Shown one piece after another: positions 1 through 33,031 of a stretch of 45,714 bases of DNA. The position numbers and the translations under genes are program-made. The stretch's first letter is position 1. Every line of letters begins with the position of its first letter. The stretch lies in IMG/VR virus record IMGVR_UViG_2718218126_000004, one strand, 5' to 3'. This stretch comes from a virus. Taxonomy: Duplodnaviria; Heunggongvirae; Uroviricota; Caudoviricetes. The notes under the pieces are model-generated. The model was not told the DNA's origin. It did no database searches and was given only the letters and a program-made list of their open reading frames with translations.

Positions 1-155
1 CTAGATGTAGAACTGTGTGGTGACGGTCTTCCAGCTATTCGGCTCCTGCTGTATTGAAGCATACCAGGCTATTTCAATATCGCTATGCTGCGGCAGCATT
101 TAACCCCTTGTAATTCATTGCCATAATTGATTTAATTCACAAATAAAACTATAAC

Positions 156-824: not shown

Positions 825-831
825 CATCCAA

Positions 832-870
832 CCGCAGCACGTTCTTGCATAAGGCGTGTCTGCGGTTTTT
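832..870 (+). terminator. Putative rho-independent terminator downstream of the methyltransferase
   Basis: Inverted repeat ccgcagcacg...cgtgtctgcgg (832-865) followed by TTTTT (866-870). Confidence 0.35.
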
Positions 871-1371
871 CAACTATTCAGATACATCACTCCCATCACA
901 TTCATTCCTCCGCATCATAGGCATATAGGCTATATCACCTTGATATTTTTCTTCTTCAGATAAAAACTGTTATCTATGTATACTTTTAAACCCAATCCGT
1001 GTAGAGTCTCTGCATAAGATAGTTTGCAGTTGCCACTTCAGCTTGCGCCATAAACCGCCTGATTTTTGCTGCCACCTGTTAGCATTCCTGTATACCTGAA
1101 ACGACAATGTTTATCTACGAACTTTAAGAACCCCCAGGATAAAAATTGTCAACTATATCATATATAACACATTACTAATTCGAGGCTATATGAACAGCAT
1201 ACTGATAATCACTTCGCTCCTTATCATATTCAGCATTTTTAGTCATGCGCTAATAAAATTAGGGATTGGCATATCCAATAACCCAGACAAAACCGATGTA
1301 TAAGTCAACATATCCTGAATCAGACATACAATATCGCAATGAAAATCAATAATATTTTAAGGAATATCTTC

Positions 1372-1605
1372 ATGAAATCAAAAGACACCCTAAAGTGGTT
1401 CCCTGCGCAGCTTCCTGAAGTAAGAATTATCCTAGGGGATGCTGTAGTGGAAGTAGCAAAACAGGGAAGACCTATCAATACCAGAACATTGCTTGATTAC
1501 ATTGAAGGAAACATAAAGAAAAAATCATGGCTGGATAACAAAGAATTATTACAAACAGCGATATCAGTTCTTAAAGACAACCAAAATTTAAATGGTAAAA
1601 TGTAA
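1372..1605 (+). CDS. ynaE: YnaE/YdfK-family small prophage protein (cold-shock associated)
   Basis: 77-aa product from the internal ATG (MKSKDTLKWFPAQLPEVRIILGDAVVEVAKQGRPINTRTLLDYIEGNIKKKSWLDNKELLQ...) matches my recollection of E. coli K-12 YnaE/YdfK; preceded by a long AT-rich untranslated region. Confidence 0.6.
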   Translation: MKSKDTLKWFPAQLPEVRIILGDAVVEVAKQGRPINTRTLLDYIEGNIKKKSWLDNKELLQTAISVLKDNQNLNGKM

Positions 1606-1921
1606 TATAATAAACTTACTTTTTTATCATTTTTCCACTTTAACAACATTTTGCTCCACTTTTCCACGACCAAACAACTTGAAATCTGGTTAAAATAACA
1701 CGCAACACTATTCTTCTTCCTTGAGTCCGCCCGGAACTCGAAAAACAAACCGAGTTAAAGCCATTTTTCACAAAATCGATTTTGGGTCTCACCAAAATTA
1801 CGGGGTTGCATACGCATTCGTTTATTTTCGAACGTGTACATACAAATATGCACAAACATAATCATAATTATTTTCTGAGATGCATTATGATATGAACACC
1901 AATTTCGTATAGAGTCTCACT

Positions 1922-2512
1922 ATGTCTCGAATTTTTGCTTACTGTCGGATATCAACGCTGGATCAGACCACCGAAAATCAACGCCGGGAAATCGAAAGTG
2001 CAGGTTTTAAAATCAAACCTCAGCAAATAATCGAAGAACACATTAGCGGCTCAGCAGCAACCAGTGAGCGTCCTGGTTTTAACCGGTTGCTTGCTCGCCT
2101 GAAATGTGGTGATCAATTGATTGTGACAAAACTGGATCGCCTTGGTTGTAATGCAATGGATATCAGGAAAACAGTGGAACAACTGACCGAAACAGGTATC
2201 AGAGTGCATTGCTTAGCATTGGGGGGCATTGACCTGACCAGTCCAACAGGAAAAATGATGATGCAAGTAATTTCAGCAGTCGCTGAATTTGAACGAGACC
2301 TTTTACTTGAACGCACTCATTCCGGGATAGTAAGAGCCCGCGGCGCAGGGAAACGTTTTGGTCGACCACCTGTGTTAAATGAAGAACAGAAACAGGCGGT
2401 ATTCGAACGAATTAAGTCAGGTGTAAGTATAAGTGCCATTGCCCGGGAATTCAAAACCTCGCGGCAAACCATTTTAAGAGCCAAAGCAAAACTTCAGACA
2501 CCTGACATATAA
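1922..2512 (+). CDS. pin: Serine recombinase, Din-family DNA invertase (Pin)
   Basis: 196-aa ORF starting [20 protein letters not shown] with the resolvase/invertase catalytic N-terminus and C-terminal HTH; matches recalled PinR/PinQ/PinE of E. coli prophages; convergent with tfa. Confidence 0.9.
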
Positions 2513-2609
2513 AAAATAATCTCGGTGTGAGATGCTTTACGTCTTCCAAGCCCCCTTCCTTGCCGTAAATGGAAAGATACATCTAATTATAGAATTTATA
2601 TGTTTTACC

Positions 2610-3185
2610 CTACGGCAGTGCTGGCCATTCAATATCCTGTGCAGTTGACGTATCAACACGGTTCAGCAATACCCGATACTTTTTCCATGCTTCCAGCAAC
2701 GAGATTTCTTCCTCCGTTGCAATTTCCAGATCTGCAGCATCCTGAAGCGGCGCAATATGCTCACTGGCTACCTGCATCAGGTTGTTTTTTGTTTCTTCCG
2801 CCTCCCGGATCCGGAACAGTTTTTCTGCTTCCGTATCCTTCACCCAGGCTGTGCCGTTCCACTTCTGAAACTCCCCTTCCGGCGATAACCAGGTAACATT
2901 TTTCGGTAACGGACCGAGTTCAGAAATAAATAACGCGTCGCCGGAAGCCACGTCATAAACCGTTTTACCCCGATGATCTTCAACGAGATGCCACGATGCC
3001 TCATCACTGTTGAAAACAGCCACAAAGCCAGCAGGAATATCTGGTGGTGCAATATCGGTACTGTTTGCTGGCAGACCTGTATGAGGCGGAATATATGCGT
3101 CACCTTCACCAATAAATTCATTAGTTCCGGCCAGCAGATTATAAATTTTTATGGTCCGTGGTTGTTCACTCATTCTGAATGCCAT
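2610..3185 (-). CDS. tfa: Tail fibre assembly protein Tfa
   Basis: 191-aa ORF immediately downstream of stf with a 1-nt stop/start overlap (TAATG); N-terminus resembles lambda/Rac Tfa. Confidence 0.85.
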
Positions 3186-6100
3186 TATGCAAGCCTCACA
3201 ATATAGTTAAATGCGATGTTTTTGACGGTGTTTTCCGCGTTACCAGCAGCGTTAACGGTGATGGTGTGTCCATGTGAACCAATCGCAACGGAGTGCGTAT
3301 GAGCACCAATACCGACAGTATGCGCGTGTGCACCTGCAGATGCTGCTGTGCCGGACAGTGAATGGCTATGATTACCATCTGTACTGGTATTCGCTAACCA
3401 CCCCGTAGACATACCTACTGAGCCTTGTACACCCCAGGTATTTTGACCTGAGCTTGTATAACCATATTGATAAGTATCTTTAAAAACACTGGGGTTAAAT
3501 CGACGGCCATCTCTATGGCTGTGATTACCAGCTGCATTCGTGCTGCCACTTAAACTATGGGTATGCGCACCAGTGTTATTCGTGGATTTAGTGCCGTAAT
3601 CAAACGACGATGTGGTTTTCGTCCCCAAATCCGTACTGGATGCGCTGGCGCTGTGGGTATGCGATTTAATGCCATCCTGTTCCTGAGACAATACGGCACG
3701 ACCACTGGCGGGCTTGCCCTTAATCGTCCAGCCACGCAAATCAGGGATCACGCCTGACGGATAAGCGGCAGCAAGTTTCGGGTAGGCAGATTTGTCAAAA
3801 GTCTGCCCCTGCATCAGGGCATAACCAGACGGAACGGTATCTGATGGCCACGGGATTGGTGCGCCGACTGGGTAGCTTTCTGGTGGAAGATTTTTCGAGG
3901 TATAAACTTCTGCCCAGTCTTCCTCAAAACCATAGCCATCTCTTGAAGAACGGTAGAACAGACCACCATTTCTGTAATGCGCCTTCATCTGCAGGGTCCG
4001 GCAACTTCCGACTCCGGTATAGAAGTTAACCAGAATATAGCTGTCGCCAGAGCGGGTGACATTGTAAGCGCCTGATTCGGCATTCCAGGGAACGCCACCA
4101 TCCGCATCGGCATATGTATCCGTTGCCCTTCTGGCAAAAGCAGCCACATGCGCGGCGGTTAAAGTAATATCTTTGGAACCATCAAACTCAACACCAGAAA
4201 CCCGTCTTGGCGTTTGCAGCTTTGTTGCTGTTAATGCATTACCGTTCAGACTTGCGGACAGTTTGGTTCCAATAACCAGTTCGCCGGTTGCGTTATCAAT
4301 AGCAAACGGTCTTAATGTATTCCAGCCACCATAAACATCACCTTGATTGGTAAGCAGCAGGTAAGTTTTAGCGCCATCATTACGCCATAATGCCCCATAC
4401 TCCCCACCTATCATTCGAATCTGATTACCACCACGCGCTACAATTTCGTCTGTGGCAAAAAGTTTTTTGCACGACAAGTTATCGTTAACGATTAACGAAT
4501 GAGACTCATAAAAACCACGCCCACTCTTAAAATCAAGGATAACGTCCGCCGCGATACATTCAGTCGCTGGATTTGTTGCCCCAAACTTATAGGTCGTATC
4601 ATTAACAACGAGATCAGCACCAGGTGCGGATATTGACAGGCCATCTTCGATAAACGCAAAAACAGGGAAAGCAGCGCCATCAACATAGAACACAGAGCGC
4701 AAATCATCGCCCTTATTACTCATCATTATTGAGTGGATGGCTCGTTCATTGTTTTGATATTGCCAGAACATTCCATAAGCATAACGCCCCCTGTCAGTCC
4801 AGCCACCAGGCATAACAAATCCGTTAAACTCGCAGTTATTCATCGGATCGCCTGCGGTTCGCGTTGCCGTGGTGATAATGACCCTTGATGCCAGTTCGCT
4901 TACTGAGCCAGCAGAACGCATAACAACAACAGGGTAATATTTTCCAGATGTTGCACCTGCAGGAGCGTTAACCCGCACATAACGCATACCACGCTTATCA
5001 GCAAAGTCTGTTTTACTGACCGCGTTAATGTTGTTCAGGAAGCGTCCCTTATCGGGTATATCAGCGCCGTTCTGGTCTTTCTGCAGACGTTTCTCTGCAT
5101 TGTCATAGGCTGATTTTACTGCCTTTGGCGTTGCCGCCAGCGTTTCAGACGTACTGTTGGTCGCACTGCTGAGCTGTACTATCCCCTTTTTCGTCGTACT
5201 TGCATCCTCAAGCGCCACGGCGGATGCAATATCCTCTGCCCGTTTTGCCGCTGTCTCGGCGCGCGTTGCCGCGGATTCCGCCGTACTTTTGCTCTGTGCT
5301 GCCGCCGTCGCACTGCCAGCTGCCTCTGTCGCCTTCGTGGATGCCGTCGTGGCGCTGCCCTTCGCTGCGGACGCTTGTCTGGTCGCCTCATCTTTTGAAG
5401 CAGACGCCGATGATGCCGATGACGCCGCCGAACTGGCGGACGATGCGGCAGCCGTTTTTGAGGATTCTGCGCTGGTTTCCGACGCTTTCGCGTTCGTCTC
5501 GGATGTCTTCGCTGCGGAAGCAGACCTTGCTGCTGCGCTGGCCTGTTCAGTGGCTTCGCCAGCCTTCGTTGTGGCTGTTGAAGCAGACGATGCGGCGCTT
5601 TCTGCCGATTTTCCGGCGGCGGTGGCACTGGCTGAGGCCTGCCCGGCACTTGTTGACGCGGCACTGGCAGACGACGCAGCCGCTGTTTTTGAGCCTGCCG
5701 CAGCCGAGGCGCTCTGTCCCGCTGCCGTTTCAGAAGACCTGGCGTTTGTCTCAGACGTCTTTGCCGCCTTCGCGGAATTGCCTGCCGCCGTTGCCGAGGA
5801 AGCGGCACTACTGGCGCTTGATGATGCGTTCGTTTCTGATGATTTCGCTGCCTCTTTTGAGGCCGCCGCATCCCGGGCTGAGGTGGCTGCTTCTGACGCC
5901 TTCGTGGTCGCGGCGGATGCAGAAGTGGCTGCTGATTGTTGTGACGCTGCCGCATTCGTTTCTGACGTTTTCGCCGCAGCGGCACTGGTGACCGCCGCGC
6001 TTTTTGAGGACTCTGCAGCGGCAGCACTTTTTTCCGCTTCAGTGGCCTTTGTTGATGCCGTTCCTGCGCTGGAAGACGCTGACTGAGCCGACGAAGCGGC

Positions 6101-6589
6101 CTGTCCGGCTGACGTGCTGGCTGCGCGTGCTGAGCCTGCAGCATCAGTCGCATGGGTTGCCGCCTCACGGGCTGATGTGCCGGCATCGCTGGCTGACTTC
6201 TTCGCGGCTGCCGTGTTCTGTGCCACCGCGGACGCGTTACGCGCCACCTCTTCCACCATCAGTTCAAAACGGCGCAGTGCCTCAGGACGGGCATCATCCT
6301 CCGTCATGGCACCGAGAAAATCATTCAGCGTACCGGGTCGGGAATCTTCATACACGGTGATGGTCCCGGCATGTGACGGCGGGAATCCCTCCACCAACAG
6401 AATAACGCTGTACTGCCCGTACTCAACGTCCATGCTGTAACGCCCGGCTTCATCCGGATTTTCTGAGGCCAGCGTGTTCACCACCACCGTGGTGCTGTTA
6501 CGTTTTGCTTTCAGCTGGATTGTGCAGTTCTGTACCGGTTTTCCTGTGCCGTCTTTCAGTACACCTGAAATCTTTACTGCCATATTCAC
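3185..6589 (-). CDS. stf: Side tail fibre protein Stf (likely start at the ATG at 6583)
   Basis: About 1130-aa ORF; N-terminus [26 protein letters not shown] as in lambda Stf/StfR; long Ala/Ser/Thr-rich low-complexity shaft; C-terminal HxH repeats (GAHTHS, GNHSHS, GAHAHT, GSHGHT) typical of fibre-tip domains. Confidence 0.9.
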
Positions 6590-6590
6590 C

Positions 6591-6619
6591 CCACAAAAAA
6601 GCCCGCCTGAACCGGCGGG
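6591..6619 (-). terminator. Putative rho-independent terminator between lom and stf (minus strand)
   Basis: Hairpin gcccgcc-tgaacc-ggcgggc (6601-6619) followed on the minus strand by a T-run (plus-strand A-run 6595-6600). Confidence 0.4.
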
Positions 6620-6647
6620 CTGTCATAACACTGTGTTACCTGGCTAA

Positions 6648-7247
6648 TCAGAATTTATAACCGACACCCACGATGAAACCGTCAGTGCGCCAGTCACCAC
6701 TGCCGGAGCCTTCATAAGCAATATCAATGGCCACGGATTCGGTCGGGTTAAACTGCACGCCAGCCCCCCACGCCAGAGACGTGTTGCTGTGGCGACCGTC
6801 ATCACTTCCGGTCAGCACATCGTGCTTTTTCCCCTTGTTGTCAGTTACGCGAAGATAATCCCCGGAGAAAGTCGACACACGGCTGTAAGCTACACCCGCC
6901 ATCGCATACGCGCTGAACCATTCATTCACGCGCACAGACGGCCCCGCCATTACGCTGAACCAGCGGTTACGAACGGAATCTTCATGCCAGCGGGTATCGC
7001 TGTAACGGGTCAGCTGGCGATTCTTGTCTCCTGCATAGCTGAATGACGTCACCAGCCCCAGTGTGTCCGTAAACTCATAACGGTATTTCACGTTAATCCC
7101 GTTCAGATTATCGCTGCCGGGGACGTTCGTCGAGGCATGAAGATACCCCGCGCTCAGCGTGGACTGATGTTCAGATGCCCATGCAGGCGCACCGGATACG
7201 GCCAGACAAATGGCTGCGGACAAAATGGCGGCATAAAGTTTACGCAT
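6648..7247 (-). CDS. lom: Outer membrane protein Lom (Ail/Lom family), full-length copy
   Basis: 199-aa ORF with signal peptide and C-terminal AYEGSGSGDWRTDGFIVGVGYKF as in lambda Lom; sits between J and stf as in lambda. Confidence 0.9.
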   Translation of the reverse strand: MRKLYAAILSAAICLAVSGAPAWASEHQSTLSAGYLHASTNVPGSDNLNGINVKYRYEFTDTLGLVTSFSYAGDKNRQLTRYSDTRWHEDSVRNRWFSVMAGPSVRVNEWFSAYAMAGVAYSRVSTFSGDYLRVTDNKGKKHDVLTGSDDGRHSNTSLAWGAGVQFNPTESVAIDIAYEGSGSGDWRTDGFIVGVGYKF

Positions 7248-7270
7248 AATTACCTCTCGCTTTTCTGCAA

Positions 7271-7296
7271 TAAAAAAGGCACCATTTCTGGTGCCC
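7271..7296 (-). terminator. Putative rho-independent terminator downstream of the J copy, upstream of lom
   Basis: Hairpin aaggcacc-atttct-ggtgccctt with adjacent A-run on the plus strand (T-run on the minus strand). Confidence 0.4.
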
Positions 7297-7316
7297 TTAT
7301 ATGGGTTATAACAATT

Positions 7317-9895
7317 TCAACGAATACTGATGCCGGAAGCGGCTTTTTTGGTCACAATCACCGTACAGTCGGTGATATTGCCTGCCCCCTGATTGCCTTT
7401 CTGGAAAATCTTAAACTCCAGAGTGACGCTTCCCCTGCCACTCGGCATATCAATAACTGCACTGTAACTACCGGGAATGGCCCCTTTAGTTTCTCTGGAT
7501 GCGATTAATACGCCGTTTTTGCGAACTTCAAAACCATAACCCGTGTATCGCGTGCCTCCTGGGTTATTTCCGCTCCCCGGATCGTCATACGCTATACCGT
7601 TAAAAATAATGGGCGGAATAATAATCTGGCGGTCAAAGTTATGATCATCGCTGATGGTGACTGTAACCGTACCATTTGGTGTTTCCGTGTTACCCCACGT
7701 ACCGACTTTTTTCGGGAAGGCTTTTGATACAGCTTTAACGAAATCTCCTCTGACCTGGGTCGCCTCCAGCATGCCCTTAATCGTACAGTTCTGGTTAATC
7801 GTGACATTGTTGAGCGTTCCTGAGTTCGCATTCACACTGCCACTGATATCCGCATTTTTCGCCGTCAGTCTCCCGTCTGATGTCAGGGAAAATGCCGGAG
7901 GATTACCGCCGCTGGTAATGGTGGGGGCCGTCAGGCGTTTCAGGAACACTTCATTCATGAATATCTGATCGCCCTGACCAACAAACATCGGCTTTGTGTT
8001 GCCATTCGCAGGATTAATCATCGCAATCCTGTCTGCTGCCAGCAGCACCTGACTCTGCATGCCGTCAGGGGTGTTCTCAATACCGGCACCGATACCCGCA
8101 ATATAAAGGCGTCCGTCCTGCATCTGCTGCAGCTTCACTGCCCACATGCTGTTCAGGTTATTATTTGTATCAACCTGAACCTTCTGTATCTGCTGGATCG
8201 CTGCACTCTGGTCTTCCAGTTTCTTATTGACGGTCTGTGTTATTTCATTGCTGACATCCGTTATGGACGTCCTGATTTCAGTCAGGTCAGGCGCAAGCTG
8301 ACCGTTATCAATCTGCGTCCACAGCTCCTGAGCCAGATGGGTTTTCCCTATCTCGCCTTTGAAAAAATCCAGATAGCCTGATGCATCATCACTCGGCTGA
8401 CCGACAGCCTCCACGAATGCCGATTTGCCAACGGTGTTCACACTGCGAACGTAAAAATAATAATCATGGCCCGGTTTGATATTGATACTGGCGGCTATCC
8501 AGTACAGTGCCGTACCAAGATAACGCGCGCTGGTTTCAACCTGCCTGATATCCGCAATCCGTTTTTCCGAGAACCAGAACTCAAACTGTACCGTCGGGTC
8601 ATAAACCGCAAGATGCGGCGTGGCGGTTATCTGAAAATAGCCCGGCGTCAGCTCAATCCGCGACGGCGCTGCCGGTGCGGCAATCCGGAACGATACCGAC
8701 GCCGGATCGCCCTGCTGCCCCCACGCATTTACCGCCCGGACTGTCAGCCTGTAGTTCCCCAGCGCCAGTTGCCTGAAGCGGTATGTGGTTTCCGTCGTCC
8801 GGGCCGTGCTGACCAGCCGCTCACTGCCGTCATCCGCTGTTACGGTCAGACGGAGCAGGAAGCTCACGCCCTTCACCACCTTCGGCGTGTCCCAGCGGGC
8901 CAGCACCTGGTATTCCCCGCTGTCTGCGGTGACTTCTGCGGTCAGGTGCTGCACCGCTGGCGGCGTGACACCATTTACCGTGCCGCTCTGGTCGCCGTCA
9001 AAGTGCGCCCCGTTATCCACGATGGCCTCTTTTTCCGGTACATGCTGCACGGCGGTGATGGCATACGTGCCGTCGTCGTTCTCACGGATACTCACGCAGC
9101 GGAACAGGCGCTGGCGCAACGTCGGCAGCTTCAGCCCCCATACGCTGTATTCAGCAACGCCGTCAGGAACACGGCTCACTTTTACCTTCACGCCGTCGGT
9201 GACGGACTGGACCTCCACGCTGACCGGATTGCCACTTCCGTCAACCAGGCTTATCAGCGTGGTACCGGAGGATGGCAGCGTGATTTCACGGTCGAGCGTC
9301 AGCGTCCGGGTCTGGCTGTTCACCGCCAGCACGCGCCCGCCGGTGCTGATACCCGCATAGTCATCATCGCAGATTTCAATGACATCCCCCGGTACATGGC
9401 GAAGCCCTTCCGCACCCACGCTGAAGTCCACGGTCTGCGTTTCCAGCAGTTCCGTTTTAATCAGCCACAGCCCGGCGCGGTGCGCCTGCCCCCGACTGGT
9501 ACAGCCAAAGGCATCCATCTTCGTGACGTTACGACCGTAACGGGCAATGGCCTGCGTGTCCTCCACAAGCTCTGTCGCCGTCTCCCAGCCGTTATCCGGG
9601 TCAATCCAGTTCACCTCAACGGCATTATGGCGGTCCTTCAGGGCGCTGAAGCTGTAGCGGAACGGCGCGCCATCATCCGGCATCACCACATTACTGCGGT
9701 TATAGGTCCACACCTTATCTGATGGTCGGTCCTGCACGAACGTCAGCGTCTGCCCGTTCCATACCGGCATACAGCGCATCGCAGAGCAGAAATCACTGAG
9801 CACATCCCACGCCTTGCGCTGTGTGGTCAGGTACGCATTACAGGTGATGCGCGGCTCCGTGCCGCCAAAACCGTCCGGCACCGACTGATCGCAAT
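7317..9895 (-). pseudogene. 5'-truncated duplicate of tail tip gene J (lacks roughly the first 306 codons)
   Basis: ORF 7317-9881 translates to the C-terminal ~854 aa of J; its upstream end fuses abruptly at 9895/9896 to sequence from inside lom; no plausible start or RBS. Confidence 0.8.
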
Positions 9896-10254
9896 GCTAC
9901 ACCCGCCATCGCATACGCGCTGAACCATTCATTCACGCGCACAGACGGCCCCGCCATTACGCTGAACCAGCGGTTACGAACGGAATCTTCATGCCAGCGG
10001 GTATCGCTGTAACGGGTCAGCTGGCGATTCTTGTCTCCTGCATAGCTGAATGACGTCACCAGCCCCAGTGTGTCCGTAAACTCATAACGGTATTTCACGT
10101 TAATCCCGTTCAGATTATCGCTGCCGGGGACGTTCGTCGAGGCATGAAGATACCCCGCGCTCAGCGTGGACTGATGTTCAGATGCCCATGCAGGCGCACC
10201 GGATACGGCCAGACAAATGGCTGCGGACAAAATGGCGGCATAAAGTTTACGCAT
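9896..10254 (-). pseudogene. 3'-truncated duplicate of lom (first ~119 codons) fused out of frame to the J fragment
   Basis: ORF 9838-10254 matches full lom for ~120 aa (MRKLYAAILSAAICLAVSGAPAWASEHQ...YAMAGVA) then diverges at the junction. Confidence 0.8.
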
Positions 10255-10277
10255 AATTACCTCTCGCTTTTCTGCAA

Positions 10278-10303
10278 TAAAAAAGGCACCATTTCTGGTG
10301 CCC
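10278..10303 (-). terminator. Duplicate copy of the J-lom intergenic hairpin terminator
   Basis: Same sequence as 7271-7296 at +3007 bp. Confidence 0.4.
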
Positions 10304-10323
10304 TTATATGGGTTATAACAATT

Positions 10324-13300
10324 TCAACGAATACTGATGCCGGAAGCGGCTTTTTTGGTCACAATCACCGTACAGTCGGTGATATTGCCTGCCCCCTGAT
10401 TGCCTTTCTGGAAAATCTTAAACTCCAGAGTGACGCTTCCCCTGCCACTCGGCATATCAATAACTGCACTGTAACTACCGGGAATGGCCCCTTTAGTTTC
10501 TCTGGATGCGATTAATACGCCGTTTTTGCGAACTTCAAAACCATAACCCGTGTATCGCGTGCCTCCTGGGTTATTTCCGCTCCCCGGATCGTCATACGCT
10601 ATACCGTTAAAAATAATGGGCGGAATAATAATCTGGCGGTCAAAGTTATGATCATCGCTGATGGTGACTGTAACCGTACCATTTGGTGTTTCCGTGTTAC
10701 CCCACGTACCGACTTTTTTCGGGAAGGCTTTTGATACAGCTTTAACGAAATCTCCTCTGACCTGGGTCGCCTCCAGCATGCCCTTAATCGTACAGTTCTG
10801 GTTAATCGTGACATTGTTGAGCGTTCCTGAGTTCGCATTCACACTGCCACTGATATCCGCATTTTTCGCCGTCAGTCTCCCGTCTGATGTCAGGGAAAAT
10901 GCCGGAGGATTACCGCCGCTGGTAATGGTGGGGGCCGTCAGGCGTTTCAGGAACACTTCATTCATGAATATCTGATCGCCCTGACCAACAAACATCGGCT
11001 TTGTGTTGCCATTCGCAGGATTAATCATCGCAATCCTGTCTGCTGCCAGCAGCACCTGACTCTGCATGCCGTCAGGGGTGTTCTCAATACCGGCACCGAT
11101 ACCCGCAATATAAAGGCGTCCGTCCTGCATCTGCTGCAGCTTCACTGCCCACATGCTGTTCAGGTTATTATTTGTATCAACCTGAACCTTCTGTATCTGC
11201 TGGATCGCTGCACTCTGGTCTTCCAGTTTCTTATTGACGGTCTGTGTTATTTCATTGCTGACATCCGTTATGGACGTCCTGATTTCAGTCAGGTCAGGCG
11301 CAAGCTGACCGTTATCAATCTGCGTCCACAGCTCCTGAGCCAGATGGGTTTTCCCTATCTCGCCTTTGAAAAAATCCAGATAGCCTGATGCATCATCACT
11401 CGGCTGACCGACAGCCTCCACGAATGCCGATTTGCCAACGGTGTTCACACTGCGAACGTAAAAATAATAATCATGGCCCGGTTTGATATTGATACTGGCG
11501 GCTATCCAGTACAGTGCCGTACCAAGATAACGCGCGCTGGTTTCAACCTGCCTGATATCCGCAATCCGTTTTTCCGAGAACCAGAACTCAAACTGTACCG
11601 TCGGGTCATAAACCGCAAGATGCGGCGTGGCGGTTATCTGAAAATAGCCCGGCGTCAGCTCAATCCGCGACGGCGCTGCCGGTGCGGCAATCCGGAACGA
11701 TACCGACGCCGGATCGCCCTGCTGCCCCCACGCATTTACTGCCCGGACTGTCAGCCTGTAGTTCCCCAGAGCCAGTTGTGTGAAGCGGTAAGTGGTTTCC
11801 GTCGTCCGGGCCGTGCTGACCAGCCGCTCACTGCCGTCATCCGCTGCCACGGTCAGGCGAAGCATAAAGCTCACCCCCTTCACCACCTTCGGCGTGTCCC
11901 AGCGCGCCAGCACCTGATATTCCCCGCTGTCTGCGGTGACTTCGGCAGTCAGGTGCTGCACCGCTGGCGGCGTGACACCATTTACCGTGCCGCTCTGGTC
12001 GCCGTCAAAGTGCGCCCCGTTATCCACGATGGCCTCTTTTTCCGGTACATGCTGCACGGCAGTGATGGCATACGTGCCGTCATCGTTCTCACGGATACTC
12101 ACACAGCGAAACAGGCGCTGACGCAGTGTCGGCAGCTTCAGCCCCCACACGCTGTATTCGGCTATTCCGTCAGGAACCCGGCTCACTTTCACCTTCATGC
12201 CGTCGGTGACGGACTGGACCTCCACGCTGACCGGATTGCCACTTCCGTCAGCCAGGCTTATCAGCGTGGTGCCGGAGGATGGCAGCGTGATTTCACGGTC
12301 GAGCGTCAGCGTCCGGGTCTGGCTGTTCACCGCCAGCACGCGACCACCGATGCTGATACCAGCATAGTCATCATCGCAGATTTCAATAACATCGCCCGGT
12401 ACATGGCGAAGCCCTTCTGCGCCCACACTGAAATCCACGGTCTGCGTCTCCAGCAGCTCCGTTTTAATCAGCCACAGCCCGGCGCGGTGTGCCTGCCCCC
12501 GGCAGGTACAGCCAAAGGCATCCATCTTCGTAACATTACGACCGTAACGGGCAATGGCCTGCGTATCTTCAACAAGCTCTGTCGCCGTCTCCCAGCCGTT
12601 GTTCGGGTCAATCCAGTTCACCTCAACGGCATTATGGCGGTCCTTCAGGGCGCTGAAGCTGTAGCGGAACGGCGCGCCATCATCCGGCATCACCACATTA
12701 CTGCGGTTATAGGTCCACACCTTATCCGACGGTCGGTCCTGCACGAACGTCAGCGTCTGCCCGTTCCATACCGGCATACAGCGCATCGCCGAGCAGAAAT
12801 CACTGAGCACATCCCACGCCTTGCGCTGTGTGGTCAGGTACGCATTACAGGTGATGCGCGGCTCCGTGCCGCCAAAGCCGTCCGGCACTGACTGGTCGCA
12901 GTACTGGCCGATGACATACAGCGCCCATTTGTCCACATCCGCCGCACCAAGACGTTTCCCCATGCCGTAGCGCGGATGGGTCAGCATATCCCACAGACAC
13001 CAGGCCATGTTGTTGCTGTATGCTGGCTTAAACGTTCCGTCCCAGATACCGCTGTATTGCCGCGTCTGCGGGTTATAGTTCGACGGCACCTGCAGAATGC
13101 GCCCGCGCAGATGATAATTACGGCTCACCTGCTGGCTGCCGAACTGCTCCGAATCCACCTGCACGCCGACCAGTGCCGTGTTCGGGTAGCACTGTTTCAC
13201 ATCGATGATTTCGGTGTATGACGACCAGAGCGTTTTGTTCTGCAGCTGGTCTGTGGTGCTGTCCGGCGTCATCCTGCGCATCCGTATATTGAACGGGCGC

Positions 13301-13821
13301 GGCGGCAGGTTACCCACCACCACCGAGGCCAGATACTGCGAGGTGGTTTTGCCCTTAATGGTGATGTCTTTTTCCGTCACCCAGCCACCATTACGCTGGA
13401 TCTGAACCAGCAGGCGGACTTCCGACGGATTCCGGTCCCCCTTTGAGGTGGTTTCCACCAGTGCCTGCACGCCGAAGGTAAAGCGCAGACGGTCGATGTT
13501 TGCAGACGTAATGGTGCGGGTGATCGGCGTGTCATATTTCACTTCCGTACCCAGCACCGTCTCGGAGCCGGAGGATTCAAACCCCTCCGGCGGTGTCTGC
13601 TCCTGCTCACCGGCACGGAACACCACCGTGACACCGGAGATGTTGGTATTCCCCTCAGTGTCCAGCACCGGCGTACTGTTCAGCAGCACGCTTTTTAATC
13701 CATCCACCGGACCTTCAACCGGCCCTTCGCTGATGGCATCGATCACACTCAGCAACTGCGTGGACTTCAGGTTGTCCTTCGCTTCGCGCGGGGTATGCCC
13801 CTTACTGCTTCCTTTACCCAT
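10324..13821 (-). CDS. J: Tail tip / host specificity protein J (central tail fibre)
   Basis: 1165-aa ORF starting [34 protein letters not shown], matching recalled lambda gpJ over the N-terminal portion; C-terminal receptor-binding region differs from lambda. Confidence 0.95.
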
Positions 13822-13881
13822 TCCTCACGCTCCATAAATGACAAAACCGCCCGCAGGCGGTTTCACATAAAACATTTTGCA

Positions 13882-14553
13882 TCAGCGACCAATCACCACA
13901 ACCTGACCACCGTCCCCTTCGTCTGCCGTGCTGATCTCCTGAGAAACCACGCGAGACCCCACGCGCATTTCCCCGTACAGAACAGGCAGAACATTGCCCT
14001 GGGCAACCATGTTATCCAGTGAGGAGAAATAGGTGTTCTGCTTACCGTTATCCGTTGTCTGTGTACGGGGAGTTCTGGCTTTCGGTGCCAGCATCTGCGC
14101 CACACCACCGAGCACCATACTGGCACCGAGAGAAAACAGGATGCCGGTCATACCACCGGCCCCAATGGCTGCCCCCCATGCTGCAAGGGTGGCTCCGGCG
14201 GTAAAGAATGATCCGGCAATGGCGGCAGCCCCCAGGACAATCTGGAATACGCCACCTGACTTGGCCCCGGCGACTCTGGGAACAATATGAATCACAGCGC
14301 CATCAGGCAGAGTCTCATGTAACTGCGCCGTTAACCCGGACGTGCTGACGTCCCGCCCGGCAATCCGTACCTGATACCAGCCGTCGCTCAGTTTCTGACG
14401 AAACGCCGGGAGCTGTGTGGCCAGTGCCCGGATGGCTTCAGCCCCCGTTTTCACACGAAGGTCGATGCGGCGACCAAATCGTTGTAAATCCCCGTAAAGG
14501 CAGATGCGCGCCATGCCCGGTGACGCCAGAGGGAGTGTGTGCGTCGCTGCCAT
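13882..14553 (-). CDS. I: Tail tip assembly protein I
   Basis: 223 aa, same length as lambda gpI; overlaps K by 103 nt as in lambda; glycine-rich hydrophobic C-terminus. Confidence 0.9.
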   Translation of the reverse strand: MAATHTLPLASPGMARICLYGDLQRFGRRIDLRVKTGAEAIRALATQLPAFRQKLSDGWYQVRIAGRDVSTSGLTAQLHETLPDGAVIHIVPRVAGAKSGGVFQIVLGAAAIAGSFFTAGATLAAWGAAIGAGGMTGILFSLGASMVLGGVAQMLAPKARTPRTQTTDNGKQNTYFSSLDNMVAQGNVLPVLYGEMRVGSRVVSQEISTADEGDGGQVVVIGR

Positions 14554-15194
14554 TTGTCGGTGTACCTCTCTCGTTTGCTCAGTTGTTCAGGAATATGGTG
14601 CAGCAGCTCGCCGTCGCCGCAGTAAATTGCGGCGTGATTCGGCACCGATGAACCAAAACAGCACAGCAGCACATCGCCCGGCTGTGCCGCTGACAACGGC
14701 ACCTGATACAGCCCCGTCGCCTCCAGATTATCCAGATAGAGATTCTGGCCGTTACGCCACCAGTCATCCTCACGATGAAAATCCGGCATCTCAATCCCCG
14801 CCAGATGATAAGCATCCCGGAACAGTGTGTAACAGTCCGTCACACCGTGCTCAAAGCGCCGCCCGGTGAGATGCGGCACACAGCGGAACTTATGAATCGT
14901 CCCCCGGCAGACCAGCCACCACGGCAAATCACTCTGCACCTGCAGCCGCCGGTCGGCCTCACTCAGCCAGGGTAGACCACCGGGGTGGCTGTGGACCAGC
15001 GCCACAATCTCACCCTGTCGAACTGCCTGCAGCCAGTCTTCCGGCGACATACGGAAATACGCCTCCGGCTCACCGGAGATATTCACGCAGGGGAAATATC
15101 TTTCCCCCTCCGGCGTGCTTACCACGAAGCCGCACGACTCCGCTGGCGCACATCGCCGGGCGTGCGCCAGAATCGCTGATTCTGTCTGTGTCAT
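14451..15194 (-). CDS. K: Tail tip assembly protein K (MPN/JAMM plus NlpC/P60-like domains)
   Basis: 247-aa ORF MTQTESAILAHARRCAPAESCGFVVSTPEG...; JAMM-like motif ALVHSHPGGLPWLSEAD; as I recall, lambda K is annotated from an internal Met 48 codons downstream (about 15050). Confidence 0.85.
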   Translation of the reverse strand: MTQTESAILAHARRCAPAESCGFVVSTPEGERYFPCVNISGEPEAYFRMSPEDWLQAVRQGEIVALVHSHPGGLPWLSEADRRLQVQSDLPWWLVCRGTIHKFRCVPHLTGRRFEHGVTDCYTLFRDAYHLAGIEMPDFHREDDWWRNGQNLYLDNLEATGLYQVPLSAAQPGDVLLCCFGSSVPNHAAIYCGDGELLHHIPEQLSKRERYTDKWQRRTHSLWRHRAWRASAFTGIYNDLVAASTFV

Positions 15195-15897
15195 GGGATT
15201 TACTGCGAAAGTTTGTTATGGAAAGGAAGCCGCCAAAGTTGCCGACGTTATTGCGGAACTTACAACCGCTCAGGCATTTGCTGCATTTATCCTTCGTGAT
15301 ATCGGACGTCGGCTGGTCATATTCATCCGCGACAGCCGGACCGCTATAACCGCACTCGTCACCGCGATAGGTCCAGGTGCAGGTGTTGGCCAGCATGATA
15401 CGTCCCGGAAAAACAGCGCCATCCGTTTCCGTCGGCGTGGACAGTACAAAGGAGGCACTCACCGCGCTCAGTTCGCTGCACTGCTCAATGCGCCAGCGGC
15501 TGATCACCTCCTGCTCCGGATCGGCGTAACTGTTTCCGTTGACGAAGTTCACCGCATCCAGAAAACGGGCGTAAACCTTACGCCGGACCACCGTTCCGCC
15601 GACCAGACTCTGCATATCTTCCGCCATCCCGGTGACCATACCGTACAGGTTAGAAACCGTCAGCGTGGGGCGCGTACTGGTGCCTTTGCCATTCAGTTCA
15701 AAACCGCTCCCCTGAATGGGATACGGCTGATACTGTCGCCCCTGCCAGGTGACCGGCTCACCTTTTTCGTTCTGCTCATTACAGAAAAAATAACGTTCTC
15801 CACCGACCTCTGTCAGGTCGATTTCCCAGAGCACCACGCTGGCCGACTGCTCCGCACGGGTGCATTCATTCAGTGTTTCCTGCCGGATATCCTGCAT
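15070..15897 (-). CDS. L: Tail tip assembly protein L, with an apparent C-terminal frameshift that extends the ORF into K
   Basis: First ~227 aa match recalled lambda gpL (MQDIRQETLNECTRAEQSASVVLWEIDLTEVGGERYFF... Cys cluster CSKCLSGC); the expected stop TAA (15200-15202) is out of frame by one nucleotide, so the ORF reads 48 extra codons into K. Confidence 0.8.
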   Translation of the reverse strand: MQDIRQETLNECTRAEQSASVVLWEIDLTEVGGERYFFCNEQNEKGEPVTWQGRQYQPYPIQGSGFELNGKGTSTRPTLTVSNLYGMVTGMAEDMQSLVGGTVVRRKVYARFLDAVNFVNGNSYADPEQEVISRWRIEQCSELSAVSASFVLSTPTETDGAVFPGRIMLANTCTWTYRGDECGYSGPAVADEYDQPTSDITKDKCSKCLSGCKFRNNVGNFGGFLSITNFRSKSHDTDRISDSGARPAMCASGVVRLRGKHAGGGKIFPLREYLR

Positions 15898-16226
15898 CAG
15901 TTCACCACCTGTTCAAACTCTGCGCTGAACTCAACACGCAACATACTGACCCGCGACGACCATTTTGCGCAGGTCACCTTTATCTGCCGCCACTCATAAG
16001 GCGGCGTCCACAGAAAGGATTTCCAGCCCCCGTGCTCTTCCAGAAACGACTCCAGTACCGTGGCCTCCTCACGGGGGACAGAAAGCGTCACGCTGTACGT
16101 TTTCAGGTTGGCATTCAGCCCGGCAGGCGCTCGCTGAGAATAGCCATCACCAAAGCGCACCTTTCTTACAGAAGGGACCGAAGCCACATCCATACCGGGT
16201 TTCACTTTCCAGCGGAAGGTCTTCAT
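15897..16226 (-). CDS. M: Tail tip assembly protein M
   Basis: 109 aa, same length and position as lambda gpM; 4-nt overlap with H and 1-nt overlap with L. Confidence 0.9.
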   Translation of the reverse strand: MKTFRWKVKPGMDVASVPSVRKVRFGDGYSQRAPAGLNANLKTYSVTLSVPREEATVLESFLEEHGGWKSFLWTPPYEWRQIKVTCAKWSSRVSMLRVEFSAEFEQVVN

Positions 16227-18784
16227 CGTCCACCTCCGGAGAACAGGCCACCATCACGCATCTGTGTCTGAATTTCATCACGGGCACCCTTGCGGGCCAT
16301 GTCATACACCGCCTTCAGAGCAGCCGGACCTATCTGACCGTTCGTGCCGTCGTTGTTAATCACCACATGGTTATTCTGCTCAAACGTCCCGGACGCCTGC
16401 GACCGACTGTCCGCCATGCTGCCCGGTGTACCGACATAACCGCCGGTGGCATAGCCGCGCATCAGCCGGTAAAGATTCCCCACGCCAATCCGGCTGGTTG
16501 CCTCCTTCGTGAAGACAAATTCACCACGGTGAACAATCCCCGCTGGCTCATATTTGCCGCCGGTTCCCGTAAATCCTCCGGTTGCAAAATGGAATTTCGC
16601 CGCAGCGGCCTGAATGGCTGTACCGCCTGACGCGGATGCGCCGCCACCAACAGCCCCGCCAATGGCGCTGCCGATACTCCCGACAATCCCCACCATTGCC
16701 TGCTTAAGCAGAATTTCTGTCATCATGGACAGCACGGAACGGGTGAAGCTGCGCCAGTTCTGCTCACTGCCGGTCAGCATCGCCGCCATATTCTGTGCAA
16801 TACCATCAAAGGTCTGCGTGGCTGCACTTTTTACCTGCGACATACTGTCCGTGGCGCTCTCTTCCCACTCACTCCAGCCGGACTTCAGGCCTGCCATCCA
16901 GTTCCCGCGAAGCTGGTCTTCAGCCGCCCAGGTCTTTTTCTGCTCTGACATGATGTTATTCAGCGCCAGCGGATTATCGCCATACTGTTCCTTCAGGCGC
17001 TGTTCCGTGGCTTCCCGTTCTGCCTGCCGGTCAGTCAGCCCCCGGCTTTTCGCATCAATGGCGGCCCGTTTTGCCCGTTGCTGCTGTGCGAATTTATCCG
17101 CCTGCTGCGCCAGCGCGTTCAGGCGCTCCTGATACGTAACCTTGTCGCCAAGTGCAGCCAGCTGGCGTTTGTACTCCAGCGTCTCATCTTTATGCGCCAG
17201 CAGGGATTTCTCCTGTGCAGACAGCTGGCGACGTTGCGCCGCCTCCTCCAGTACCGCGAACTGGCTCTCCGCCTTCCACAAATCCCGGCGCTGCTGGCTG
17301 ATTTTCTCATTTGCTCCGGCATGCTTCTCCAGCGTCCGGAGTTCTGCCTGAAGCGTCAGCAGGGCAGCATGAGCACTGTCTTCCTGACGATCGCCCGCAG
17401 ACACCTTCACGCCGGACTGTTTCGGCTTTTTCAGCGTCGCTTCATAATCCTTTTTCGCCGCCGCCATCAGCGTGTTGTAATCCGCCTGCAGGATTTTCCC
17501 GTCTTTCAGTGCCTTGTTCAGTTCTTCCTGACGGGCGGTATATTTCTCCAGCGGCGTCTGCAGCCGTTCGTAAGCCTTCTGCGCCTCTTCGGTATATTTC
17601 AGCCGTGACGCTTCGGTATCGCTCTGCTGCTGCGCATTTTTGTCCTGTTGACTCTGCTGCTCAGCCTTCTTTCGGGCGGCTTCAAGCGCAAGACGGGCCT
17701 TTTCACGATCATCCCAGTAACGCGCCCGCGCTTCATCGTTAACAAAATAATCATCCTTGCGCAGATTCCAGATATCGTCCGCTTTCTTAAACGCGGCCTC
17801 TGCCTTAATCAGCATCTCCTGCGCGGTATCAGGACGACCAATATCCAGCACCGCATCCCACATGGATTTGAATGCCCGTGCTGTCCTGTCTGCCCAGGTT
17901 TCCAGCGTGCCCATGTTCTCTTTCAGGCGTCGGGTCTGGTCATCAAACCCTTTCGTTGCGGCCTCGTTCGCCGCCTGCAATGCCCCGGCTTCATCGCCGG
18001 AACGCTGCAACTGAGCAACATACGCAATCTGCTCCGCCGTCACGTTATGGAACTGGCGCGCCATCGCCGTCAGCCCCGACGTCGGGTCAGTGGTCAGCTT
18101 CCCGAAGGCTTCAGCGACCTTGTCCACCTCCACGCCGGATGCAGAGGAGAAACGCGCCACACTCTGGCTGATGGACGCAATCTGAGCCTCACCGCTTACC
18201 CCCGCCTTAACCAGTGCGCTGAGTGACTCGCTGGTCTGGTTAAACGTCAGCCCTGCCGCCTGCCCGGCTCTGGACAGGACCAGCATACGATCTGCCGTCA
18301 GTCCCGCCTGATTGCCGGAAAGGACCAGCGTTTTGTTGAAATCGGACAGGGTTGAGTTGCCCTGATACCAGGCATACGCCAGCGCTCCGGTCGCCACCGC
18401 CAGCGAGGTAGCCCCCACCATCGGCAGGGTGATCGCACCGGCAAGCCCCCGGAACATGGGGATCATCCCGCCGAAGGAGTCCTTCACCTGACCCCCCTGT
18501 TGCAGCAGGATCAGCCACGGACTTTGCCCGCCTGCAAGCTGCGTGGCCACGTCAGTGAACTGCGCAGGCAGCATACGCATGGCGGCTTTATACTGCCCGA
18601 CGGAAATTCCCGCTTTCTGTGCAGCCAGCGCCTGCCGGTTCATCGACTGTTCAACGACTGCCGCTGTTTTTTTCGCATCACTTTCCGTACCGGAAAAATG
18701 ACGCCTGACTCTGGCCATCTGCTCGTCAAATCTGGCCGCATCCAGACTCAAATCAACGACCAGATCGCCTACCGGTTCAGCCAT
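16223..18784 (-). CDS. H: Tail tape measure protein H
   Basis: 853 aa (same as lambda gpH), starts MAEPVGDLVVDLSLDAARFDEQ; coiled-coil-rich centre and glycine-rich C-terminal region. Confidence 0.95.
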   Translation of the reverse strand: MAEPVGDLVVDLSLDAARFDEQMARVRRHFSGTESDAKKTAAVVEQSMNRQALAAQKAGISVGQYKAAMRMLPAQFTDVATQLAGGQSPWLILLQQGGQVKDSFGGMIPMFRGLAGAITLPMVGATSLAVATGALAYAWYQGNSTLSDFNKTLVLSGNQAGLTADRMLVLSRAGQAAGLTFNQTSESLSALVKAGVSGEAQIASISQSVARFSSASGVEVDKVAEAFGKLTTDPTSGLTAMARQFHNVTAEQIAYVAQLQRSGDEAGALQAANEAATKGFDDQTRRLKENMGTLETWADRTARAFKSMWDAVLDIGRPDTAQEMLIKAEAAFKKADDIWNLRKDDYFVNDEARARYWDDREKARLALEAARKKAEQQSQQDKNAQQQSDTEASRLKYTEEAQKAYERLQTPLEKYTARQEELNKALKDGKILQADYNTLMAAAKKDYEATLKKPKQSGVKVSAGDRQEDSAHAALLTLQAELRTLEKHAGANEKISQQRRDLWKAESQFAVLEEAAQRRQLSAQEKSLLAHKDETLEYKRQLAALGDKVTYQERLNALAQQADKFAQQQRAKRAAIDAKSRGLTDRQAEREATEQRLKEQYGDNPLALNNIMSEQKKTWAAEDQLRGNWMAGLKSGWSEWEESATDSMSQVKSAATQTFDGIAQNMAAMLTGSEQNWRSFTRSVLSMMTEILLKQAMVGIVGSIGSAIGGAVGGGASASGGTAIQAAAAKFHFATGGFTGTGGKYEPAGIVHRGEFVFTKEATSRIGVGNLYRLMRGYATGGYVGTPGSMADSRSQASGTFEQNNHVVINNDGTNGQIGPAALKAVYDMARKGARDEIQTQMRDGGLFSGGGR

Positions 18785-32443: not shown

Positions 32444-33031
32444 AACCCCACCTCGCAGACAAAGCGGGTGTAAATTGAGGGAATACAACGTATCGCAAAA
32501 AAGCAGAAACGTAACAGACTCGGAGTCAGTGAATAACTCAGGTATTGAGTTATCAGCTAATATCGAGACTCAAAAAATGGAAAAACCAGCTCGACGGCGG
32601 GTTTAAGCTGTGTGACGAAGTAACCACTCTTAACAGCATAACCAATTTTTTACGTACGTAAACCACTGAATGATATTTATGAGAATGCTACCGAGTGTTC
32701 AAAACACCACCACAAATACATAAGAAAACCTCAACAAATAACCAATAAATAATTTCAGAGGTTATTTTTAGTTGATTTAAATTAAACTGCCGAATTATAG
32801 AACCCCCATAAATAACAGCCATTAATATAAATTAGCTAATAGGTTTATTTTTGTTCAAATAAGAGCCATAAATAGGTTTCGATAGAAAAAGTTCAGATAA
32901 AAATAGAGATCTACTTCACAAATTAAATGAGAAACTAAAACTTACATCTTGAAATAATCACATTGATTAGATGAATATTTATCGCGCAGTGACATCATTT
33001 TTTAATAATAGTTCAAAAAAAAGGGCTCACG

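Follow-up and report, generated by a model that had tools for sequence, protein, structure and literature searches.

Phage lambda gains DNA from defective prophages via relaxed homologous recombination (De Paepe et al. 2014, PMC3945230), and lambda Red is efficient at recombining diverged sequences (Martinsohn et al. 2008, PMC2327257). Tandem repeats in E. coli with 4-15 bp of homology at their borders have been ascribed to template switching (Slack et al. 2006, PMC1428787), and microhomology-mediated break-induced replication can give complex events (Hastings et al. 2009, PMC2621351). In E. coli, one end of an exchange can also be made by homologous recombination and the other by illegitimate joining, an outcome termed homology-facilitated illegitimate recombination that is reportedly very rare, at 3e-10 per recipient (Amarir-Bouhram et al. 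2011, PMC3240628).

Here we describe a locus that resembles each of these systems in part. It lies in a 45,714-nucleotide stretch of viral DNA (IMG/VR record IMGVR_UViG_2718218126_000004; hereafter the window), which by its sequence is an apparently intact lambdoid prophage of the DLP12/argU integration site and belongs to the same type as the prophage of the chicken E. coli strain GPEC617. As in lambdoid mosaicism (PMC3945230, PMC2327257), a tail-gene patch of kilobase size appears to have been swapped for a natural allele with crossovers in identical flanks, and the donor alleles sit in prophages at other chromosomal sites (for instance Qin/ydfJ in YZMc17-1). Unlike in lambdoid mosaicism, the replaced allele is kept in an adjoining tandem duplicate, leaving both parental alleles in one genome. 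The repeat is spacer-free and head to tail, with a joint of a few bases and no insertion sequence (IS) or long repeat, as in microhomology duplications (PMC1428787, PMC2621351), and one segment may have been templated from a second related locus, as in the complex events of microhomology-mediated break-induced replication (PMC2621351). It differs from the E. coli duplications of PMC1428787 in the size of the unit (3 kb versus 7-32 kb) and of the microhomology (3 bp versus 4-15 bp), in lying inside a prophage, in having two copies only and in the lack of evident copy-number selection. Like the products of homology-facilitated illegitimate recombination (PMC3240628), it has perfect homology (12904-13365 or further) immediately beside the joint position; unlike them, its inserted unit is not purely donor, the distal 1844 bp being resident-type.

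The gene affected shares the domain architecture of lambda gpJ, the central tail fibre or tip attachment protein, and like it is followed by lom, stf and tfa. Unlike lambda gpJ, its product has 1165 rather than 1132 amino acids and a different C-terminal region, and both J and lom are single-copy in lambda. We found no report of a J-lom tandem duplication in the literature searched.

Structure of the repeated J-lom region

Ungapped pairwise comparison showed that 6889-9895 and 9896-12902 form a gap-free, direct head-to-tail tandem repeat of 3007 bp with no spacer. A repeat search of the window returned the 3007-bp spacing again, and no further direct or inverted repeat of at least 40 bp. The two units differ by 62 substitutions, all of which lie in 8733-9895 versus 11740-12902 (the first at 8733/11740, the last at 9894/12901), and there is no difference across the first 1844 bp. 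If 62 differences were placed uniformly, the probability of finding all of them within the final 1163 of 3007 positions is approximately 10^-25.6. The two diverged segments, which we call A (downstream unit) and B (upstream unit), differ by 5.3%, and the longest identical run within this block is 123 bp. The features of the region are collected in Table 1.

Table 1. Parts of the duplicated J-lom region, with window coordinates. J' and lom' denote the truncated copies.
Feature	Coordinates	Strand	Remarks
Repeat unit 1	6889..9895		Copy downstream in the direction of transcription
Repeat unit 2	9896..12902		Upstream copy, directly joined to the J 5' end
New lom/J joint, 9895/9896	9893..9898		3-bp microhomology GCT (9896-9898)
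Full-length J	10324-13821	-	1165-aa ORF, the sole complete J
J 5' part "X", unduplicated, codons 1-306	12904..13821	-	Haplotype common to the resident backbone and the B-type donor prophages
"B" patch in full-length J, read as imported, codons 307-694	11740..12903	-	63 differences from GPEC617, all inside
Full-length J 3' part, codons 695-1165 and stop	10324..11739	-	Same sequence as 7317-8732; includes the receptor-binding domain
Duplicated J-lom intergenic region and lom' (first 119 lom codons)	9896..10323	-	ORF 9838-10254, 138 aa
Truncated J'	7317-9895	-	859 open codons
"A" resident segment, 5' end of truncated J'	8733..9895	-	Equals codons 307-694; 100% to GPEC617
Truncated J' 3' part	7317..8732	-	Same sequence as 10324-11739
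Intact lom	6648..7247	-	199 aa; Ail_Lom profile 1-199 of 199

Third codon positions account for 52 of the 62 differences, transitions outnumber transversions 46 to 16, and 48 of the codons that differ between the J copies are synonymous. At the protein level there are nine differences (truncated to full copy: D407N, S440C, T491I, V524A, V542M, V553I, L653M, T659A and R681T). With this excess of third-position changes, the A and B alleles both look functional. A diversity-generating retroelement or cassette switching was also considered and rejected, as the substitution spectrum is ordinary, mostly in third positions and free of adenine bias; the collinear GPEC617 prophage has no annotated reverse transcriptase.

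A first-pass annotation of this DNA had described two partly diverged J copies with about 1.8 kb of identity at the start of the repeat, and had named a pairwise alignment of the units as the check. The alignment agrees with it: the differences are clustered and not evenly spread. The four residue examples it gave are all correct, and its count of eight amino-acid differences becomes nine by translation. It had further considered the truncated copy to carry the lambda-like residues, which holds at seven of the nine sites and fails at two, where the N407 and T681 of the full copy match lambda; at the nucleotide level, identity to lambda is about equal for the two copies (95.9% and 95.4%).

Six Pfam families scored above their cut-offs in the full-length J ORF, in the order known for gpJ / TipJ: FNIII-A_GpJ (aa 86-207), Phage-tail_3, two Ig_J, Phage_Tail_Tip and the C-terminal receptor-binding Ig_GpJ_C. 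The synteny of gpJ / TipJ is likewise present, with the tail tip genes L, K and I upstream and lom, stf and tfa downstream, as judged from the ORF map and from the annotated genes of lambda and of the collinear prophage in GPEC617. Of the positions aligned between this protein and lambda J, 963 of 1126 are identical, and nucleotide identity in the middle segment is 95-96%. The B patch spans Phage-tail_3 and the greater part of the first Ig-like domain. The receptor-binding domain of the full-length J is resident-type, with B-type prophages differing from it at 49 sites in 10557-11044.

At the other end of the unit, the first 359 nt of lom (6889-7247) lie inside the repeat. The lom' frame crosses the joint out of frame with J, stops at 9838-9840 and matches positions 1-124 only of the 199-position Ail_Lom profile (Pfam). 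An in-frame TAG at 9897-9899 precedes J', where the first possible start is a GTG at 9881 that has no Shine-Dalgarno motif; from this start and stop context, J' is probably untranslated.

Resident and B-type alleles of J

The GPEC617 prophage is unduplicated and holds one copy of the repeat unit. It is 99.6% identical to the window over 1-9898 and 9896-32901, and 99.9% identical over 32877-45714. Of the 89 differences in 9896-32901, 63 fall in 11740-12903 and none in 12904-15017 (GPEC617 being L001 in our set of compared loci); outside the B patch, the window departs from GPEC617 in just a few small clusters of single-nucleotide polymorphisms (SNPs). The adjacent backbone occurs at 99% identity or more in 289 genomes, several of which match the A-type J end, GCT included, at 100%.

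Each of the diverged segments could be traced. Allele A (8733-9895) is 100% identical to the single-copy J of GPEC617, and its best phage match is 98.0%. Allele B (11741-12902) is found at 100% in YZMc17-1 and EC17CM12 and at 99.9% in F1267 and VTB97379v, and F1267 (L005) matches the longer interval 11064-13754 with one mismatch. The B block is bounded by identical flanks (11064-11739 and 12904-13754), and the resident and B-type donors are identical for 460-850 bp beyond 12903 (12904-13365/13754). Loci L002-L006 show no mismatch over 12906-13365, an interval in which most IMG/VR loci show 4-25 mismatches per 460 bp. All 63 A/B sites are common biallelic polymorphisms, shuffled across the lambdoid J pool, and the best match of the whole mosaic J is 98.8%. 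GPEC617 itself was considered as the donor's home and rejected, as it has no B-type J at 99% identity or more.

Two hallmarks of gene conversion were found, namely a sharp-edged cluster of substitutions in a near-identical backbone and a patch that exists independently as an allele. On these matches, the truncated copy is taken to hold the resident allele A and the full-length J the import, B. Since both diverged segments are natural single-copy alleles elsewhere, the 5.3% divergence between them is older than the duplication. For the shared 1844 bp, the best match among 5,426 complete E. coli genomes was 99.8%, with no exact one, and 18 differences from GPEC617 are common to both copies. Because this stretch has no exact match elsewhere, both copies of it derive from one genome. 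Judged from sequence, the 3007-bp tandem duplication is real and recent.

The first-pass annotation had proposed a mosaic origin from two distinct J alleles, and this is borne out in that both exist base for base in unrelated E. coli prophages. It had set this origin against a simple recent duplication. Import of a second allele fits that wording, but the duplication is itself recent, with 1844 bp identical between the copies.

The lom/J joint and its origin

The parental sites in GPEC617 read ...CGCAAT/GCTGGCC in J and ...TGTAA/GCTACACC in lom, where the slash marks the point of joining. BLAST matches to the window end at 9898 on the J side and begin at 9896 on the lom side. GCT is present in both resident sites, which share no longer homology; B-type J has ACT at this position and B-type lom has GCC, so the joint was built from resident sequences. 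By itself, a 3-bp microhomology is weak evidence, as a few per cent of joints would have one by chance. The duplication endpoints carry no IS and no long repeat.

We searched for the joint in several collections. A 300-bp BLAST query across 9895/9896 returned no joint-spanning record from 5,426 complete E. coli genomes or 50,697 phage records, a 40-mer over the joint had no exact match in IMG/VR, GTDB representative genomes or JGI metagenomes, and exact protein look-up gave no record of the chimeric Lom' or the mosaic J. The structure was observed a single time among all collections searched. Two further records that looked as if they had two J genes or a lom/J joint were rejected: phage vB_EcoS-569R4 has a split J and no duplication, and E. 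coli LZHX12 has a deletion remnant.

The best explanation overall, to which we give a probability of about 70%, is a recent illegitimate tandem duplication together with homologous import of a second J allele, as opposed to divergence in place. In recent ancestry, a 3007-bp segment bounded by J codon 307 and lom codon 120 would have been duplicated head to tail when lom was joined illegitimately to J at GCT, both partners being resident-type. The first 1164 bp of the upstream copy (11740-12903) would have been copied from a type B allele by homologous recombination, the likeliest donor being a further lambdoid phage or prophage presumed to reside in the same cell. The downstream copy would then retain type A as a J fragment lacking a promoter and a start, behind a truncated and frame-shifted lom'.

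The last A/B difference (12903) lies no more than 3 bp from the duplication endpoint, and the homologous anchor (12904-13365/13754) directly abuts the position of the illegitimate joint. This proximity of endpoint and patch edge, a coincidence spotted post hoc, hints that duplication and import were one coupled break-repair event, which we consider somewhat more likely than not. We speculate, tentatively, that the structure is the frozen by-product of a single prophage-to-prophage break repair in which copying from a homeologous J stayed incomplete because the second end started exactly at the edge of the diverged block, so that the old and the new allele were left next to each other. In such an event, the resident J would break at ~12905/12906, and the end on the J 5' side would invade a B-type prophage over at least 460 identical bp and copy the B segment. 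It would return to the resident template within 11064-11739, with synthesis continuing into lom. Re-annealing would fail at the other broken end, which has five mismatches to the B copy in its last 27 nt, and the break would finally be sealed through the GCT microhomology.

The insert is not donor-only: 9896-11063 is resident-type, and B-type prophages differ from it at the 49 sites given above and in lom. Because the 3' 1844 bp of the unit is resident-type, a simple one-donor insertion is insufficient, and one more template switch has to be assumed in the coupled model. Among 75 distinct IMG/VR J alleles, a sample of limited power, there was no excess of identical-tract ends at 12903 that would mark a breakpoint hotspot. 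A non-exhaustive Pfam scan identified no Red/Rad52-type recombinase in the scanned part of the early region.

The same outcome could have been reached in two independent steps, an A/A tandem duplication through microhomology-mediated template switching or unequal sister exchange, and later a gene conversion from a B-type prophage that replaced the central part of the upstream copy through crossovers in 11064-11739 and 12904-13754. This account departs from the best explanation solely by uncoupling the events. Both processes are well known (PMC1428787, PMC3945230), and resident-type GCT stands on both sides of the joint. The upstream copy alone has unbroken homology to the B donor on both flanks of the block, making it the expected conversion target, and the perfectly identical flanks would be likelier places for crossovers than a 5%-diverged block in which identical runs are so short. 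The endpoint, however, would have to fall within 3 bp of the A/B block edge by chance, at roughly 1e-3 to 1e-2, and two rare events would be needed within the short expected lifetime of the repeat, since a 3-kb tandem repeat is expected to be short-lived in a recombination-proficient host. We regard two separate steps as possible but somewhat unlikely.

An error of assembly or of a finishing step, in which a strain with two prophages, one of them A-type and the other with a B-type J, was given a false tandem arrangement, is improbable in our judgement. A singleton would be expected from such an error, E. coli genomes carry a median of three J-like copies that tangle assemblies, and the A copy ends where the A and B types merge into shared sequence, a typical place for a graph branch. 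Yet only 3 bp are shared at the joint, where an overlap or k-mer assembler would need reads containing the joint, and a contig end derived from the graph should hold k-1 shared bases rather than the 0-3 present here. The window contains no Ns, and both alleles are perfect natural haplotypes (63/63 sites) with no sign of a mixture of reads. We also looked for a similar coincidence at the lom end, a sign that would point to an assembly-graph artefact, and rejected it: the lom endpoint is not at a shared/unique boundary, and SNPs between resident and B-type lom flank it on both sides.

Unequal, illegitimate crossover between two related phage genomes, one with the B patch (contributing 9896 onward) and the other with A (below the joint), would produce the whole structure in one event. 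It fits the recombination between two alleles suggested by the earlier annotation, and lambdoid phages recombine readily (PMC2327257). It requires a B-patch version of this exact backbone, and none was found; at the joint there is no switch of parentage in the SNPs relative to GPEC617. The parents would also have to share the 1844 bp that match nothing else exactly, and the endpoint coincidence is left unexplained. For these reasons, we consider such a crossover very unlikely.

An old duplication that diverged in place and was later homogenised over 1844 bp, in line with the earlier suggestion of partial gene conversion, would account for the sharp boundary between identical and diverged sequence, but it is hardly credible given that each diverged segment is identical to a single-copy allele in other genomes, that every A/B site is a common polymorphism of the J pool and that the joint is missing from all relatives.

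Implications for lambdoid tail genes

On the preferred reading of recent duplication and import, the processes involved are already well known; the snapshot is unusually clear and the mechanism ordinary. Mosaics of lambdoid tail genes are usually visible only as finished products, and here the replaced and the replacing allele share one genome. A datable illegitimate joint beside both alleles gives a rare natural view of inter-prophage exchange and microhomology rearrangement acting on a tail-tip gene. The functional J would be a hybrid absent from the public collections of genomes, phages, metagenomes and proteins that we searched. Its amino-acid changes lie outside the receptor-binding domain and therefore imply no change of host range. 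For annotators, the locus carries a warning: neither the second "J" (7317-9895) nor the first "lom" (9838-10254) is an additional gene, and both are fragments. If duplication and import were indeed coupled, illegitimate joints and duplications in prophage tail genes would arise preferentially at edges of homeology, and each such duplication would be a transient step on the way to a mosaic.

The tandem repeat and its genes

The collinear prophage of chicken E. coli strain GPEC617, the closest relative of the window, carries one J (the tail-tip gene) and one lom, and matches the window at 99.65% over 1-9898, 99.61% over 9896-32901 and 99.90% over 32877-45714. The window is therefore a lambdoid prophage with 3007 bp of extra DNA, a tandem duplicate. 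The GPEC617 element sits between ompT/appY and tRNA-Arg, the DLP12 site, and the stop codon of the DLP12-type integrase gene (44551-45714) is the exact window end, with tRNA-Arg next in GPEC617. At its other end (1-824) the window begins a short way upstream of a class I SAM-dependent methyltransferase gene (156-824), and it appears to have been cut from a chromosome at predicted prophage boundaries.

A repeat search of the window found a direct repeat spaced by 3007 bp and no further long repeat, direct or inverted. An ungapped comparison of 6889-9895 with 9896-12902 gave a gap-free alignment with 62 substitutions. As the first-pass annotation had described, the J repeat is part identical and part diverged: the first 1844 bp contain no mismatches, and every difference is confined to 8733-9895 versus 11740-12902. 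The differences are clustered, since 62 evenly spread changes would all fall within the last 1163 of 3007 positions with a probability of ~10^-25.6. Third codon positions hold 52 of the 62, synonymous codons account for 48 of the differing ones, and transitions to transversions stand at 46:16. The segment in the truncated copy (allele A) and that in full-length J (allele B) are two functional-looking alleles, neither sequencing noise nor decay. Translation gives nine amino-acid differences rather than the eight first counted, and the four residue examples cited then are all correct. The truncated copy had also been called lambda-like; this holds for its variable residues (7 of 9 agree with lambda J, against 2 of 9 in the full copy) but not for overall nucleotide identity, which is ~95.4-95.9% for both copies.

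Genes across the duplication and clusters of differences from the GPEC617 prophage
Feature	Coordinates	Strand	Basis or content
Full J, 1165 aa	10324-13821	minus	ORF map
Truncated lom (lom')	9838-10254	minus	ORF map
J fragment (J')	7317-9895	minus	ORF map
Intact lom	6648-7247	minus	ORF map
stf	3185-6589	minus	ORF map
tfa	2610-3185	minus	ORF map
SNP cluster	3632-3938		11 differences, in stf
SNP cluster	7109-7313 (= 10116-10320)		16 differences, around lom-J intergenic region
Small indel cluster	15018-15022
SNP cluster	39425-39503		9 differences, early region

By Pfam, the long J ORF has the complete gpJ domain series and the intact lom a full Ail/Lom barrel; lom' covers profile positions 1-124 of 199 only, with 119 lom codons followed by 19 out of frame. 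The J' reading frame has a TAG directly at the joint (9897-9899) and its earliest candidate start, GTG 9881, lacks a ribosome-binding motif, which makes the J' fragment in all likelihood silent. It is followed by intact lom together with that gene's upstream region. The residues that differ between A and B lie at aa 307-694, in Phage-tail_3 and the first Ig-like domain (Pfam). These are outside the receptor-binding domain, and a change of host range is therefore not implied.

A pin-like serine recombinase gene (1922-2512) adjoins tfa and stf, a placement known from invertible tail-fibre segments; inverted repeats of at least 40 bp were not detected in the window. A prophage-borne gene for a 365-aa porin (33032-34129) separates the lysis genes from the antiterminator gene; its GPEC617 counterpart is annotated 'porin'.

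Resident and imported alleles

Rightwards from 9896, the window differs from GPEC617 at 63 positions in 11740-12903 and then nowhere until 15018. The backbone at 12904-16900 occurs at ≥99% identity in 289 genomes, several of which match the A-type J end, GCT triplet included, at 100%, and the closest match to the mosaic full-length J reaches just 98.8%. Together, these comparisons identify A as this prophage type's resident allele and B as an imported patch. Allele A (8733-9895) is 100% identical in GPEC617, with a runner-up of 98.6% among 5,426 genomes. Allele B (11740-12902) is matched at 100% over 11741-12902 by J of two chicken isolates, YZMc17-1 and EC17CM12, whose prophage occupies the Qin/ydfJ site, and at 99.9% by F1267 and VTB97379v; F1267 has one mismatch to window 11064-13754. 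In VTB97379v the IS21-family element ISEc62 interrupts J (locus 5818-7784), and this donor-type J is a pseudogene there, yet retains the B allele. The patch spans at least 11740-12903 and at most 11064-13754, because resident and donors are identical in the flanks. Full J is thus resident at its 5' end, B in the middle and resident at its 3' end, and the gene is intact.

Across 80 IMG/VR J loci, each of the 63 A/B sites is a common polymorphism with two states, and almost every allele shuffles them differently. Alleles A and B are therefore haplotypes drawn from a finely mosaic natural pool, and in-place divergence of an old duplication is ruled out. The earlier proposal of a mosaic origin from distinct J alleles is supported and sharpened, as both exist in other genomes.

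Outside the duplication, nearly all differences from GPEC617 sit in the few tight clusters tabulated, which look like additional recombination mini-patches. In 13 IMG/VR loci the intergenic haplotype is seen again, with at least 14 of its 16 sites. At 8660 and 8667 (= 11667, 11674) GPEC617 has T at both sites, against G and C in each copy of the window, and population counts show either state to be common (70:17 and 59:28). Either GPEC617 or the window may be the recombinant here, a choice that might inform the order in which the events took place.

The lom|J joint

The joint lies at 9895|9896. GPEC617 reads ...CGCAAT|GCTGGCC at the J site and ...TGTAA|GCTACACC at the lom site, sharing GCT, whereas B-type prophages have ACT and GCC, respectively; by these triplets, the partners were resident J and resident lom. 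Nothing else matches the mismatch-free 1844 bp exactly (best 99.8%), and 18 departures from GPEC617 are common to the two copies, which makes this part a true duplicate within one genome. Recombination-proficient hosts are expected to lose 3-kb tandem repeats readily; with the perfect identity, this instability points to a recent event. The joint was absent from 5,426 E. coli genomes, 50,697 phage records, IMG/VR, GTDB representative genomes and JGI metagenomes, and a protein lookup found no record of the chimeric Lom' or mosaic J. Two loci considered as similar duplications were rejected: the annotated "two J" of phage vB_EcoS-569R4 (ON470598.1) are a single split J plus a small extra lom fragment, and in the decayed prophage of E. 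coli LZHX12, J remnants adjoin and overlap a terminase small-subunit gene.

A proposed coupled repair model and its alternatives

The final resident/donor difference is at 12903 and the duplication endpoint at 12902/12903, ambiguous up to 12905 because of microhomology. Resident and donors are identical over the next 460-850 bp, a stretch in which the wider population is polymorphic, most loci having 4-25 mismatches per 460 bp. Were the endpoint placed at random within J, the coincidence would have a probability of ~10^-3 to 10^-2, a post hoc estimate. A tally over 75 distinct IMG/VR J alleles showed no population-wide breakpoint hotspot at this J position, and the lom endpoint has no comparable coincidence.

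We infer a coupled repair model that would explain the coincidence. Resident J would break at about 12905/12906, and its 5'-side end would invade a B-type J via ≥460 bp of perfect identity, copying the B segment. The copying end would go back to the resident template within the shared 11064-11739 and on into lom. Annealing to the second broken end would fail, as its terminal 27 nt have five mismatches to the new strand, and GCT would finally seal the copied end. Such repair resembles the template-switch and microhomology-mediated break-induced replication models proposed for E. coli duplications (PMC1428787, PMC2621351), homology-facilitated illegitimate recombination, a published process (PMC3240628), and the ready recombination of lambdoid phages with resident prophages (PMC3945230, PMC2327257).

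The main caveat is an assembly artefact, since the structure is a singleton; however, graphs built on overlaps or k-mers cannot yield a joint with a 3-bp overlap unless reads support it, the sequence contains no Ns, and each allele is a perfect natural haplotype. Unequal crossover between two sister phage genomes might also give the structure, but requires an unobserved parent, and a two-step history of duplication followed by conversion must accept the endpoint coincidence. The inserted unit has a resident-type 3' part, which contradicts a simple insertion from one donor.

The duplicated mosaic J adds a further example of known processes. It represents a natural intermediate in which A and B are both preserved, and hints that illegitimate joining is linked to homeology edges.
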